Shown piece by piece: positions 1-64,000 of a stretch of DNA of 64,000 bases (its first letter is position 1; each line of letters opens with the position of its first letter). A program made the position numbers and the translations under genes. The notes beneath the pieces are model-generated. The model ran no database searches. It was not told where the DNA came from and saw only the letters and a program-made list of their open reading frames with translations. Where the stretch lies: the NCBI GenBank assembly GCA_021800165.1, contig JAJYZF010000002.1, positions 25,488-89,487 of the forward strand. Direction: 5' to 3'. Origin of the DNA: Planctomycetota bacterium. Lineage in GTDB: Bacteria > Planctomycetota > Phycisphaerae > WQYP01.

Positions 1-3000
1 CGGTTCGTCCAATCGTCCACTCAAGTCGCTCACGGATATGATCAAGGGAAAGCAGGGTCGTTTCCGCGAAAATCTGCTGGGTAAGCGGGTGGATTATTCC
101 GCCCGTTCGGTCATTGTGGTAGGTCCGGAACTGAAGATTCACCAGTGCGGTATGCCCAAAAAAATCGCCCTGGAATTGTTCCAGCCGTTTATTATCCGTA
201 AGCTCAAGGAATATGGTCTGGCTGACACGATCAAATCGGCCAAGAAGATGATTGAACGCCGGGATCAGGAAATCTGGGACATCCTGGAAGAGGTCATCAA
301 AGGTCACCCGGTGATGCTGAACCGGGCACCCACGTTACACCGCATGGGTATTCAGGCGTTTGAACCGGTATTAATTGAAGGCAACGCCATTAAGATTCAC
401 CCGCTGGTGTGCAAGGGCTTCAATGCCGATTTCGACGGCGACCAGATGGCGGTGCATCTGCCTTTGTCCATTGAAGCCCAGGCGGAGGCGCATGTGCTGA
501 TGTTGGCGACGCATAACATTTTCTCGCCGGCCAACGGTTCTCCGATCATCGGCCCATCGCAGGATATTGTCTTGGGAATTTACTATATCACCACCATGCG
601 CCGCGGAGAAGCGGGAGAGCGTCCGGAAGGTCGTGAACTGGCCTTCCGTGATTTCCATGAAGCGTGGTTGGCCTTTGATGAGCGGAAGATCGGCATGCAC
701 ACGCCCATTCGTGTGCGCATCAACCGTGATGCGGTCGTGAGCGGTCAAAATAAGGGGGCGGAGCCGGTGCCCGCCAATCGGTCGATTATCACCACGGTGG
801 GCCGTTGTTTGTTTAATGATATCCTGCCCGCGAAGATGCCGTTTTATAACTACGCTCTTTCCAGCAAGGGCGGCAGCCGCGTGATTGCCGATTGTTACCG
901 TATTTTGGGCCGGCCCGCCACCATCAATCTGCTTGATGATATGAAGGAGCTTGGTTTCAAACGGTCGACGCTTGCGGGCCTGAGCTTCGGTATCACCGAT
1001 CTGCGCATTCCCGGTCGTAAAGCCCAGATCATTGAGGATTCGCAGAAAAAAGCCGATCGGGTGGAAAAGAATCTGAACCTTGGAGCCATTACTGAACGCG
1101 AACGTTATAACCAGCTTCTGGACATCTGGGCGCACGCTCGTGAAGAAGTAACCAAGGACATGATGCAGGAGTTGGAACACGATACCCGTGACGCGAAAAA
1201 TACGCTCTTGCCGCCCAATGATTCCCGCGGCAAGCCCTACCTGAACCCGATATTTCTGATGGCTGATTCGGGTGCCCGTGGTAACGTAGACAACTTCCGG
1301 CAGTTGGCGGGTATGCGGGGGCTGATGAGCCGACCGTCGGGCGAAATCATGGAAACTCCCATTCGTACCAATTTCCGTGAAGGTCTTTCGGTGCTGGAAT
1401 ACTTCACCTCCACCCACGGTGCCCGTAAAGGTTTGGCGGATACCGCGTTGAAAACGGCGGATTCGGGTTATCTGACGCGCAAACTCGCCGACGTGGCCCA
1501 GAATGTGATTGTCAGCCAGCACGACTGCGGTACCCAAAATGGGATAAAAAAGAGTGCCATCTACAAGGGGGACCAGATTGACGTACCCCTGCGGGAAATC
1601 ATTATTGGTCGCTGCGCCGCTGATTCCTTGGTTAACCCCATCACCGATGAAGTGATCGTCAAGGAAGGTCAGATCATCACCGATGCGGTGGCCCGTAAAA
1701 TCGAAGACCTGAATATGGAAACCGTGCGGGTGCGCAGTCCGCTGACGTGCGAGGCCCCCACAGGTGTGTGCGCCTGCTGCTACGGCGTGGATTTGTCTAC
1801 CAATGCCCTGGTGGAAGAGGGCATGGCGGTGGGTATCATCGCGGCCCAGTCCATCGGAGAACCGGGCACGCAGCTTACCATGCGTACGTTTCATACCGGT
1901 GGTTCGGCCACACGTATTCTGGAGAAAAACGATGTGCGTTCCGGCGTGGCGGGCATCGTGGAATACCGTGACCTCAACGCGGTGGAGTCGCGCGATGCCG
2001 AAGGCAACAAGCACACGATGGTGCTTAAACGCAACGGCGAAATCCTGGTGCGGGACGCCAAAGGCCGCGAATTGGAAAAGTATAAAATCCCGTATGGTGC
2101 GGCCCTGCACGTGAAGGATGGTGAAAGTGTTCGAGCTGGTCAGCAGCTTTGTAGCTGGGATCAGCACCGGACGCCCATTCTGGCGGAAAAGGCTGGGGTC
2201 ATTAAATTTGAAGACATTCAGGAAGGTGAAACGGCCCGGGTGGAAAGCGAAGGTAAAGGTGGCAGCAAGCGCCTGGTCATCGTGGAACACCGCGGGGAAC
2301 GCCATCCGCGAATTGTAATTGAAGATCCCGATGACGGTAAAATTCTGGACTTCCACTATCTGCCGGCCAAGGCCCGTATCGACGTGGATGCCGGTCAGAA
2401 GGTGCAACCCGGTACATTGCTGGCCCGGCAGCCGCGGGAAATCAAAGGCACCTCCGATATTACCTCCGGTTTGCCGCGGGTGACGGAAATCTTTGAGGCT
2501 CGTAAGCCCAAGGATACGGCGATCATGGCGGAGATTTCCGGTACGGTGGAACTGCGCAACGACAAGCGTCGGGGCAAGATGACCATCATCATCCGGGGTG
2601 GCGGCGATGTGGAAAAGGATCATCATGTGCCGCAGGATCGACAGTTGCGTGTGCATACCGGCGATCAGGTGGAAGCGGGCGATCCTTTAATCGATGGTCC
2701 CATGGTACCGCATGATATTCTGCGCATCAGGGGTGAGGATGCCTTGCAGGAATATCTTATCACCGAGGTGCAAAATGTTTATCGCACGCAGAATCAGCGG
2801 ATCAGCGACAAGCACATCGAAGTGATTGTTTCGCAGATGCTGCACAAGGTTAAAGTTGAGAATCCGGGCGACACCGCGTTTCTGCCGGGCGAGGTGTTGG
2901 ATAAGTTTCGTTTCCGCCGCGGAAATGAAGCGGTGGCCAAACTGCATCGCGTGGAAGATCCGGGCGATAGCGAACTGGCTGTTGGGACGCTGCTTACCCG

Positions 3001-3481
3001 TGAGCAGGTCAAAGAGGTGGTCGCGACGGTTGAGGGCAAAGGTGGCAAGCCACCCAAAACCCGTCGAGCGCGGCCGGCCAACGCGAAAACTCTGCTCCTG
3101 GGTATTACCAAGGCCAGCCTGCAAAGTGAATCGTTTGTATCCGCGGCAAGCTTCCAGGAGACTACCAAGGTGCTTACCGAGGCGGCTTTGGCCGGTCGTG
3201 AAGACACCCTGCAAGGGTTGAAGGAAAATGTCATTCTCGGCCATTTGATTCCGGCCGGGACGGCTTTCCGGCAATATCAGAATCTGCAGATCTCGCACCT
3301 CGGCGAGCCTGTGCCGGAAACGGATATGGAAATTCCCATCATCAATCGGTTGCCGCTGGCAGAAGCCATGCGGGTAACAGGGGGTGCTGCCGCCGTTGCT
3401 GAATCCGCGGCCACCGAAACCGCCGCCACGGAGTCTTCCGCGGTTGTGGCCGAGCCGCCCAAGGAAACCGCCGGAGCCTGA
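1..3481 (+). CDS. rpoC: DNA-directed RNA polymerase subunit beta' (5'-truncated by the window edge)
   Basis: GKRVDYS, NRAPTLH, catalytic [44 protein letters not shown] and SAASFQETT motifs; the frame is open upstream of ATG 38 ([12 protein letters not shown]). Confidence 0.99.
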
Positions 3482-3508
3482 CGCGGGAAAATTCGTACGC
3501 CAAAGATC

Positions 3509-3550
3509 AAAGGGCCGATGTTGTTCTTTACAACACCGGCCCTTTTTTTT
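3509..3550 (+). terminator. Rho-independent terminator after rpoC
   Basis: Stem AAAGGGCCGATGTTG / CAACACCGGCCCTTT with a 7-nt loop, followed by a T-run, 28 nt after the rpoC stop. Confidence 0.85.
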
Positions 3551-63055: not shown

Positions 63056-63105
63056 GGCGCTCACGTTATTGACATCGTGGAAAAACGCGGCTACGCTTTA
63101 AGCCT

Positions 63106-63780
63106 ATGCCAAGAACCGCACGGGCCGCCAAAGGCGGCGTCATTTATCATATTTTTAACCGCGGCAACGGCCGCAGGGTGGTCTTTCGTAAGCGGAAAGA
63201 CTATGAGATGTTTTTGGAAATACTCAGAGCGGGCCGGGAGCGGGCTTCCATCAAAGTATTCGGGTTTTGTTTGATGCCCAACCATTGGCATTTGGTGGTT
63301 CGCCCGCGAGGTGACGGCGATCTTTCCGCTTATCTTTCCTGGATCACCAACACCCATGTCAAACGCTGCCGCGTGCGACACCCTCATGCCAAGGGAAGCT
63401 TGTATCAGGGGCGTTATAAAAGTTTTCCAGTGCAAGGTGGACGACATTTCATCAACCTGTTGCGCTATATTGAAAGCAATCCGCAGCGTGCTGGGTTGAA
63501 AAAGCGGGCGGAGAAGTGGCCATGGTCAAGCTTGGGCTGTGATAAAAAGGTGGCATCGGCACTTTTAGATTCCTGGCCGGTGGATCGGCCTAAGCATTGG
63601 CGTAAGGTGGTTAGTAAGCCGCTGAGCAGGGCCGACCGAGATGTGGTTGTGGCCAGCTTGAAGCGCTCACGTCCTCTGGGCGAAGATCTTTGGGTGAGAA
63701 TGACGGCCAAGAAGACTGGTAAGGAGCAAACGCTTCACCCCATTGGTCGTCCGCCAAAACAGATCAAGAAAGTAAGATAA
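63106..63780 (+). mobile_element. REP-associated tyrosine transposase (RAYT; IS200/IS605 Y1 superfamily)
   Basis: MPR..R, YHIFNRGN, HUH motif FCLMPNHWHL, LYQGRYKS, YIESNP.RAG and WPWSS. Confidence 0.9.
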
Positions 63781-64000
63781 GTTGGCGGTTGTTCCAAGAC
63801 CGCCTCCGTTTGGGGCGCGGGCACAGCGGTGCCGTCTGTTGGCCGCGGATTTGCCGCAGGCACGCCGTATTCTCGTGCCTGGAGGTCTCAAAATTGACTG
63901 CGGTGAGGGGAAAAAAATTGGGGAAAAAGTGACGCGACCGCGATCCCAAGGATCTTTCTCGGAGGGCTTCGCCGGGTGACTGGCGGTGGCACGCTGAGCG

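Follow-up and report, generated by a model that had tools for sequence, protein, structure and literature searches.

Why does a stretch of 64,000 nucleotides from a Planctomycetota bacterium of the class Phycisphaerae hold not one copy of the hexamer CAGCTG, and what does this have to do with the two genes near 55 kb, which encode a predicted DNA methyltransferase (MTase) of the PvuII type and a nuclease with an HNH domain? The stretch, hereafter called the window, covers positions 25,488 to 89,487 of contig JAJYZF010000002.1 (assembly GCA_021800165.1), and CAGCTG is the target of PvuII. The answer that we favor, at a probability of roughly 0.7, is that CAGCTG is avoided throughout the lineage by way of long and repeated exposure to restriction-modification (R-M) systems of PvuII specificity, which were gained, lost and replaced.

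By an exact count on both strands, CAGCTG occurs zero times in the 64,000 bases of the window, as the sequence-only reading of this DNA had reported from a manual scan, where base composition predicts 19.1 occurrences and Markov models of order 1, 2, 3 and 4 predict 14.7, 26.7, 23.8 and 8.6, respectively. The mean over 100 dinucleotide-preserving shuffles was 14.6 (standard deviation 4.0). The hexamers quoted in that reading at positions 1112, 1871, 1301, 15376 and 15553 are present as written (letters were compared, not reading frame), and the words one letter away from CAGCTG are common, as it had said, i.e. AAGCTG 24, CAGCTT 18, GAGCTG 12, TAGCTG 7 and CAGCTC 6. Its claim that the gap is specific to CAGCTG among palindromes had to be given up: CATATG is also absent from the window (6.9-16.8 expected), and GGCGCC and GGGCCC occur only 3 (26-60 expected) and 5 times (29-49 expected), respectively. 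Among overlapping 64-kb windows on the long contigs of the same genome, 18 out of 27 were free of CAGCTG, and the window is therefore typical of its genome rather than special.

The assembly that holds the window, as part of contig 35, is a metagenome-assembled genome (MAG) of 4,369,258 bases in 228 contigs, with 92.8% completeness and 2.2% contamination. It has 87 CAGCTG sites, where 1347 (composition), 1030 (order 1), 1581 (order 3) or 643 (order 4) were expected. The zero is thus no literal absence once the whole genome is considered; the deficit itself is borne out under the order 4 model in both window (0 against 8.6) and genome (87 against 643). CAGCTG ranks first for depletion in the genome, both among the 64 palindromic hexamers, a ranking that the earlier reading had put forward as a check, and among all 2080 strand-merged hexamers. 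Only the full hexamer is affected, with 87 sites as compared to 1313 for CAGCTT, 1331 for AAGCTG, 675 for GAGCTG and 644 for CAGCTC.

The surviving sites are unevenly distributed over the assembly. Contigs of at least 50 kb (1.76 Mb) hold 9 CAGCTG (417/657/240 expected) and those of 20-50 kb hold 12 (335/492/196 expected), which together makes 21 sites on contigs of at least 20 kb, against 436-1149 expected. On well-assembled contigs the word is thereby some 20-55-fold under-represented, at roughly 2-5% of expectation. Contigs shorter than 10.5 kb (0.67 Mb) hold 62 sites, and these contigs were sorted by whether GGCGCC, CATATG and GGGCCC are jointly scarce in them, a signature independent of CAGCTG. 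Thirty-one short contigs (207 kb) resemble the host in this respect and contain 3 CAGCTG, with 62 expected, while 59 without the signature (281 kb) contain 55 of the 87 sites of the genome, with 89 expected. Most residual sites therefore lie in DNA unlike the rest of the genome, which is either mis-binned or recently acquired mobile DNA. Out of the 21 sites on contigs of at least 20 kb, four are found in tRNA genes (two tRNA-Lys, one tRNA-Phe and one tRNA-His), which are located as follows in the window's genome (G000):

C60:40695-40769, tRNA-Lys (UUU), keeps CAGCTG
C62:45897-45971, tRNA-Phe (GAA), keeps CAGCTG
C132:49866-49938, tRNA-Lys (CUU), keeps CAGCTG
C138:25062-25136, tRNA-His (GUG), keeps CAGCTG

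For three of these four genes the word is situated in the D-arm, where eight other tRNAs have AGCTCAGTTGG; the tRNA sequence is constrained where CAGCTG survives.

Within open reading frames (ORFs; crude ones of at least 200 aa on contigs of at least 20 kb were used), the codon pair CAG-CTG encodes Gln-Leu only 8 times, where codon usage predicts 753, and the second (xCA-GCT-Gxx) and third (xxC-AGC-TGx) frames have 3 and 1 occurrences against 86 and 90 expected, respectively. Outside the ORFs there are 9 sites, including the 4 in tRNAs, against 176-179 for the neighbor words. The depletion is a property of the DNA, independent of frame and coding status, which sustains the specific depletion claimed from the letters of the window, and codon-pair bias is excluded because all three frames and non-coding DNA are similarly depleted. 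Several Gln-Leu synonyms exceed expectation, i.e. CAA-CTC (2.3 times), CAG-CTT (1.8 times), CAG-TTG (1.3 times) and CAA-CTG (1.2 times). The products of C-to-T change, CAGTTG (1412) and CAACTG (1446), are not in excess in the genome when compared to the 1383-1710 occurrences of other CANNTG words, which argues against mutation driven by methylation.

Other words are scarce in the same genome as well: CATATG occurs 84 times (431-1052 expected), GGCGCC 764 (2311-4040), GGGCCC 672 (1865-3577) and ACTAGT 4 (27-171). GGGCCC, GAGCCC/GGGCTC and GAGCTC are jointly low, which looks like avoidance of GRGCYC. At least seven further PF01555 DNA methylases pass the curated cut-off, several of them in open frames of 570-730 aa, on contigs C225, C34, C109, C221, C115, C167 and C40 (L001-L005, L007 and L008), and their number suggests many R-M systems in one genome.

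The comparison with relatives covered 41 genomes, with each species represented by a single MAG (completeness 69-100%); as related genomes are not independent of one another and one was sampled per species, the counts are to be taken as descriptive. As a measure we employed the ratio of the CAGCTG count to the mean of the CAGCTT and AAGCTG counts, which is 0.066 in the window's genome and 0.092, 0.095, 0.031 and 0.046 in four congeners. Three of the congeners (G002, G003 and G004) lack the DNA segment that carries the MTase-HNH pair in the window, and their ratios, in ascending order, are 0.031, 0.046 and 0.095. Values below 0.36 were obtained for 22 out of 24 other members of the family, the exceptions being G013 (0.89) and G023 (0.66), and for 7 out of 16 genomes that belong to the class but not to the family. 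A lineage-wide depletion, as the sequence-only reading had supposed, is thus seen in all five genomes of the genus and in nearly all of the remaining family. Eleven of the sampled genomes have a ratio of at least 0.49, ten of which span 0.58-1.47. A different pattern occurs in G026 (3.0 Mb), with 69 CAGCTT and 67 AAGCTG, as compared to about 700-2200 in the other 40 genomes, together with 75 CAGCTG, suggesting that the four-base core AGCT is avoided there.

Systems related to PvuII, or what is left of them, were found in nine genomes, all with a ratio of 0.31 or lower. An intact MTase-HNH pair is present in four of the 41, namely G000, G015, G016 and G032, and a decayed pair, with stop codons and fragments, in G036 and G009. 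G004 has a 5'-truncated HNH gene alone, while G002 has an orphan methylase, with efflux and HEAT-repeat genes as neighbors, which the MTase tree places on the canonical side. A canonical system is found in G008, where one ORF with the domains HTH_3 and Endonuc-PvuII (E 3.4e-56) is divergent from an M.PvuII-like methylase; R.PvuII was matched in this genome only, the other 40 being without a match. No gene neighbors are common to any of these loci, and the lineage harbors at least three kinds of remains of CAGCTG systems, at non-syntenic places. Matches of the MTase at 33-36% identity (in G022, G021 and a second one in G016) were excluded as PvuII-like, as were, as modules, HNH matches with E 1e-10 to 1e-5 that cover the HNH region only. 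No PvuII-like methylase or nuclease was found in the 11 genomes with a ratio of at least 0.49. Nor was any such gene found in the depleted genomes G017 (97% complete, ratio 0.044), G027 (0.053), G019 (0.068) and G003 (0.031).

In classical PvuII systems the controller (C) and restriction (R) proteins are encoded by separate genes. The ORF of G008 (L037:6218-6985, minus strand) joins controller-like HTH_3 and R.PvuII domains in one open frame of 255 aa, and the same fusion appears in many database homologs of about 250 aa.

The MTase-HNH pair of the window is found on a segment with the following features:

54924..57571, no strand assigned, segment of about 2.6 kb that carries the MTase-HNH operon and is absent from the syntenic locus of three congeners (genome alignment)
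54924..54932, plus strand, left copy of the direct repeat GGCGGCAGA (9 bp), at the segment edge
55021..56172, plus strand, M.PvuII-like N4-cytosine DNA methyltransferase of the beta class (PF01555, E 8.5e-37; 1BOO, E 3.1e-104)
56164..56169, plus strand, AAGGAG, ribosome-binding site of the nuclease gene, within the last codons of the methylase (sequence reading)
56175..57173, plus strand, MTaX1-HNH protein of 332 aa, candidate restriction endonuclease (PF20296, E 8.6e-23; PF13391, E 7e-11)
56175..56654, plus strand, N-terminal MTaX1 domain, residues 1-160 (PD-(D/E)XK-like fold in the predicted structure)
56694..57170, plus strand, C-terminal HNH nuclease domain, residues 174-332 (structural matches to TagI and VcaM4I)
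57520..57528, plus strand, right copy of the direct repeat GGCGGCAGA

The genomes of G002, G004 and G003 align to the window up to 54921-54924 and then again from 57572, with 93-102 bp between the flanks there. The G+C content of the segment (0.558) is close to that of its flanks (0.568 and 0.564), and the repeat, expected 0.85 times in the window, is found there three times, with one copy at either edge of the segment. The three congeners are 88-92% identical to each other and 81-85% identical to the window's genome; one gain here and one ancestral loss are therefore equally parsimonious. The pair is a mobile module. It sits at a different location in every genome examined, and its neighbors differ elsewhere: in seven loci of 10-19 kb, none of the ORFs that surround it between 40 and 64 kb of the window reappears near it.

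The methylase was aligned to M.PvuII (1BOO) with an E value of 3.1e-104 and 352 bits, over query residues 40-325 and chain residues 7-294, which covers the region between the catalytic and S-adenosylmethionine motifs. TSPPF and FGGS motifs are both present in the translation. Together, the full-length match and the SPPF motif agree with the earlier assignment of this gene as a PvuII-type N4-cytosine methylase, which thus appears sound at the level of homology. Its ORF opens with GTG at 55021 and ends with the stop codon TGA at 56170-56172; because the homology to M.PvuII only sets in at residue 40 (about 55138), the start given here is provisional. In a quick tree, the window methylase is placed in the HNH-linked MTase clade, among copies from Planctomycetota. 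The ATG of the nuclease gene (56175) lies 2 nt past the TGA of the methylase, and, to judge from this arrangement, the two genes form a translationally coupled operon.

Both domains of the nuclease pass their curated cut-offs, with 81.5 bits for PF20296 (cut-off 25) and 42.3 bits for PF13391, HNH_2 (cut-off 21). The structure was predicted as two domains, with a predicted local distance difference test score (pLDDT) of 86.5 and a predicted template modeling score (pTM) of 0.74. Residues 1-160 matched I-Ssp6803I (Z 8.2, 126 residues aligned, root-mean-square deviation 3.5, Foldseek probability 1.00), Hjc (Z 6.0-6.4), RecU (Z 6.0) and the SPARDA nuclease domain (Foldseek probability 1.00), and the HNH domain matched TagI (Z 9.7) and VcaM4I (Z 8.7), to which there are also weak sequence matches. 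The alignment to TagI spans the whole chain, although residues 1-160 are best matched by PD-(D/E)XK folds and not by SRA/EVE readers. With Z values in the middling range, a PD-(D/E)XK-like MTaX1 domain is likely but not certain. All 78 positions that are invariant in an alignment of 25 sequences are conserved in the window copy, including the HNH residues H237, N252 and H261. Among the invariant residues of the MTaX1 domain, E67, R69, Q71, D103 and H107 were picked out as polar by eye; inspection by eye of the same residues revealed no canonical D...(D/E)xK motif, and no conserved acidic residue at the expected first D. We infer from the model that the MTaX1 domain may read unmethylated CAGCTG and that the HNH domain would cut it, and the pair would accordingly be a putative type II system with CAGCTG specificity. 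No gene of the R.PvuII family (PF09225) was found in the window's genome (92.8% complete), by a search that detects the copy in G008 at E 1.8e-56.

The surroundings of the pair contain three more ORFs:

53733..54266, minus strand, nrdR, conserved left neighbor outside the system (ATP-cone and Zn_ribbon_NrdR; syntenic in congeners)
54297..55169, minus strand, ORF of 290 aa with no Pfam or NCBIfam family (only 54297-54921 conserved in congeners)
57561..58226, minus strand, gene of the histidine phosphatase family, conserved right neighbor outside the system (His_Phos_1; syntenic in congeners)

All named homologs of the NrdR protein belong to MAGs of Phycisphaerae or Phycisphaerales. The 5' end of the 290-aa ORF extends into the inserted segment, and we considered this ORF as a third system component; it was rejected, having no family match, its conserved part outside the segment and no counterpart beside the pair elsewhere. 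No helix-turn-helix (HTH) controller gene flanks the pair according to a family search of the window ORFs. Between 54700 and 57700, a scan returned no sigma-70 promoters, by a model that is uninformative for this phylum, and terminator-like sites at chance level only, which are equally uninformative here.

Homologs of the nuclease are numerous, with 1562 matches at E <=1e-5, and both domains were present in all of the 120 matches listed. We examined 79 homologous loci from species genomes of many phyla, and in 72 of these an M.PvuII-like MTase, 57-75% identical to that of the window, is encoded on the same strand at most 300 nt upstream. Out of the remaining seven, three are found beside other methylases, two at contig ends, and two (L109 and L113) have a partial or distant PvuII-like match. 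The pooled flanks of the 72 loci (993 kb) contain 64-65 CAGCTG, where 304 (composition), 272 (order 1), 361-366 (order 3) or 345 (neighbor word) were expected. The host DNA is thus depleted about 5-fold, and CAGCTG ranks first among the 64 palindromes and the 2080 hexamers (0.17, the next being 0.44). In a sign test on 63 loci (nine of the 72 with less than 5 kb of flank were omitted) CAGCTG was below the neighbor word in 59, equal in two and above in two, and 33 of the 63 have no CAGCTG in their flanks at all, where 2-2.5 such loci would be expected. The three loci with other methylases offer a small control, and their flanks are not depleted, having 10, 9 and 6 sites; the partners are C5 methylases in two (L057 and L121) and a multi-methylase of 1305 aa in the third (L093), and the MTaX1-HNH nuclease family may thus have more than one specificity. 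The depletion around carriers gives support, independent of homology, to CAGCTG being the target of the MTase-HNH pair.

At L057:7605-9919 and L121:6464-8670, in two genomes of other phyla, a tandem of two C5-cytosine methylases precedes the MTaX1-HNH gene. GGGCCC is strongly under-represented in the pooled loci L048-L126 and L128-L207, which originate mostly from soil and sediment MAGs of many phyla, at 0.18-0.30 of expectation in the flanks and 0.04-0.13 in the modules.

The modules themselves differ from the DNA around them. In the 72 HNH modules (147 kb) we counted 39 CAGCTG, with 37-45 expected, giving rank 55 among the 64 palindromes; 42 modules have none and seven have at least two, matching a Poisson distribution, so that 30 contain the word. 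The comparison set, from metagenome contigs, consisted of 56 out of 80 canonical loci with R.PvuII and a divergent M.PvuII-like methylase, omitting the 24 that lacked an adjacent, sufficiently long MTase match. These canonical modules (104 kb) have 3 CAGCTG against 22 expected (rank 3 of 64), and their flanks (313 kb) 33 against 85-87 expected (rank 12). HNH modules differ from canonical modules at p = 9e-6 and from their own flanks at p = 1.6e-11, whereas the two sets of flanks differ only at p = 0.02. In a quick tree, HNH-linked and canonical methylases fall into separate clades, with a value of 99 in the Shimodaira-Hasegawa-like approximate likelihood ratio test (SH-aLRT). The module at L074, on the same contig as G016:C28, has four CAGCTG in about 2 kb and 0 in its 17.5 kb of flanks.

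For this asymmetry we prefer a reading in which the coupled operon, with the methylase translated ahead of the nuclease, would produce little self-cutting at steady state and, having no delay mechanism, would establish itself only in site-poor genomes, which would also explain the presence of the module here, where the congeners show the same degree of depletion. It is also possible that the nuclease is low in activity, that CAGCTG sites within the module serve a use, or that methyl-dependent restriction by the host filters against the methylase. We also considered that selection might act on host sites alone, either at invasion, when they are still naive, or after loss, when they become exposed; this was dropped as a general rule, as the canonical modules are purged of their own site.

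Taken together, the avoidance in most of the family and the varied remains of systems suggest a history in which selection on the DNA sequence itself would remove CAGCTG, while R-M systems of PvuII specificity come, go and replace one another in the lineage. The module in the window would then be one episode of exposure and not the cause of the deficit, and it may be tolerated, or have been able to establish itself, because the genome was already site-poor. The resident pair is probably not the sole cause of the depletion, because its segment is absent from three depleted congeners and modules of its family carry CAGCTG at chance level.

Several points weigh against this history. Ancestral loss in G002, G003 and G004 is equally possible, and that the depletion predates the module is not proven. 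With one MAG per species, a gene that was not found differs from a gene that was never carried. One canonical R.PvuII in 41 genomes is thin evidence for purging by canonical systems, and the site-rich short contigs may be real mobile DNA of the organism instead of mis-binned sequence. Moreover, if the HNH enzyme did cut CAGCTG, its own genes would be expected to avoid the word like those of canonical modules, and the HNH modules do not avoid it; the specificity of both proteins is itself predicted from homology and word statistics.

More tentatively, and in our view short of an even chance, site depletion could be a heritable niche that decides which restriction systems a genome can host, where C-controlled PvuII systems purge site-rich genomes and C-less HNH modules follow. 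If true, hosts of the C-controlled PD-(D/E)XK PvuII systems would be moderately depleted, with the system's own genes purged, and HNH modules, exerting little selection per site, would be confined to genomes already emptied, hence the most depleted hosts, with the window illustrating the later of the two stages.

An unlikely explanation is that the resident MTase-HNH pair purged the genome in place, occasional under-methylation leading to cuts in the chromosome and sites being selected away over a long residence. The module is intact, with its 78 invariant residues and coupled translation, its predicted target is the avoided word, carriers in many phyla have depleted flanks, and ancestral loss in the three congeners is as parsimonious as a gain here. 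These observations have to be set against the congeners without the segment, which are about as depleted (0.031-0.095 against 0.066), against G017, which at 97% completeness has no detectable remnant and a ratio of 0.044, and against the different place of the module in each genome examined; the chance-level CAGCTG of the family modules (39 against 37-45) is also hard to fit with selection per site. The sequence-only reading had tied the depletion to the MTase-HNH pair: the predicted target, the enzyme family and a lineage-old pressure are retained from it, and the causal link is not, given equally depleted congeners without the segment.

Causes unrelated to restriction, i.e. codon-pair bias, a bias of repair or mutation, or mutation induced by the methylase at its target cytosine, appear highly improbable. 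The same reading had named equal depletion in relatives that never carried a PvuII-like MTase as pointing to such a cause, and equal depletion is indeed what we observed in G017, G027 and G019, where no such methylase was detected; several further palindromes are low, too. As a comparison of relatives with and without the MTase this result goes against the claim in form, yet the vestigial systems and the sampling of single MAGs speak for R-M exposure in the past or in some strains only, and not for a cause outside R-M. Against codon-pair bias stand the three frames and the non-coding DNA, and replacements are spread over many synonyms rather than concentrated on CAGTTG and CAACTG, the effect being limited to the full hexamer. 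Mutation driven by the methylase would deplete the modules' own sites, and these are not depleted. In genomes without R-M systems, only 0.7% of orthodox sites are under-represented according to Rusinov et al. 2015 (PMC4687349).

We find it hardly credible that the methylase marks CAGCTG on any DNA and a modification-dependent HNH enzyme cuts the marked sites, such that the host must be free of the word. The nearest solved HNH domains are those of the modification-dependent TagI and VcaM4I, the nuclease has a weak NCBIfam match to a phosphorothioate-DNA-dependent endonuclease (47 bits, cut-off 180), and the host depletion is unusually deep; the word nevertheless occurs inside the genes of 30 out of 72 modules, one of them with four in 2 kb, and 21 sites persist on the long contigs of the genome, four tRNA genes included. 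The N-terminal fold, moreover, best matches PD-(D/E)XK nucleases and not SRA/EVE readers, and a methylase followed by a nuclease is the usual type II arrangement. An artefact of assembly or binning can be dismissed, for although this is a MAG of 228 contigs with sharply different site content among contig classes, long contigs with normal gene content lack the word while neighbor words abound, and the same deficit is seen in dozens of relatives that were assembled independently and in the flanks of 72 loci from unrelated assemblies.

Survival of a few percent of sites across most of a family, with survivors concentrated in tRNA genes, makes this a clean case for the strength and age of selection against a word. 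The MTaX1-HNH family, whose 1562 homologs are labelled only as "putative restriction endonuclease", gains a concrete predicted specificity and is a candidate for a new structural class of CAGCTG restriction enzyme. The opposite behavior of the two kinds of modules, with the HNH modules keeping their own site in spite of more depleted hosts, bears on the origin of avoidance, be it steady-state self-cutting, killing at establishment or loss, or a filter on the hosts that a system is able to enter.

Earlier work on restriction-site avoidance is reportedly due to Gelfand and Koonin and to Rocha et al. According to Rusinov et al. 2015 (PMC4687349), avoidance increases with the residence time of orthodox type II systems, avoided sites are common to relatives whatever systems they now encode, and avoidance without a system is taken as a trace of lost systems. 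The present case resembles that description in that a type II palindromic target lies below Markov expectation with a deficit common to relatives, and a cognate R-M system is predicted by homology in the genome or close relatives. It is unlike usual site avoidance in its depth and breadth (2-5% of expectation on long contigs, rank 1 of 2080, 22 out of 24 family members), in that the resident system is on a segment absent from equally depleted congeners, and in that the module family keeps its own site.

Like the PvuII system (M.PvuII, 1BOO; R.PvuII, PF09225; C.PvuII), the locus has a full-length homolog of the methylase with SPPF, and the avoided word is the PvuII target. Unlike it, the nuclease is an unrelated MTaX1-HNH protein, with no R.PvuII homolog in the genome and no C protein beside the pair, and the two genes are co-directional and coupled instead of divergent. 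In its enzyme list, PMC2441816 places PvuII under PD-(D/E)XK only, and no HNH-type enzyme for CAGCTG was described in the literature searched, which did not include REBASE. TagI (6GHS) and VcaM4I (6YEX), the best whole-chain structural matches of the predicted model, share with the nuclease an apparent domain for DNA reading at the N terminus, followed by a helical linker and, at the C terminus, an HNH domain. They are modification-dependent and stand alone, whereas the MTaX1-HNH gene directly follows a methylase in 72 out of 79 loci, and its N-terminal domain is modeled as PD-(D/E)XK-like (I-Ssp6803I Z 8.2, Hjc Z about 6) and not as SRA/EVE. The MTaX1 family (PF20296), which the relevant passage of PMC10853773 credits to Krishnan et al. 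2020 and for which that passage offers only a general prediction of modified-DNA discrimination, is represented here as its name says, by a domain associated with a methylase; the literature searched held no link of MTaX1 to PvuII-type methylases or to host depletion of CAGCTG. The phenomenon is hence of a known kind, i.e. restriction-site avoidance in a strong, family-wide form, while the new elements are the type of nuclease and the asymmetry between module and host.

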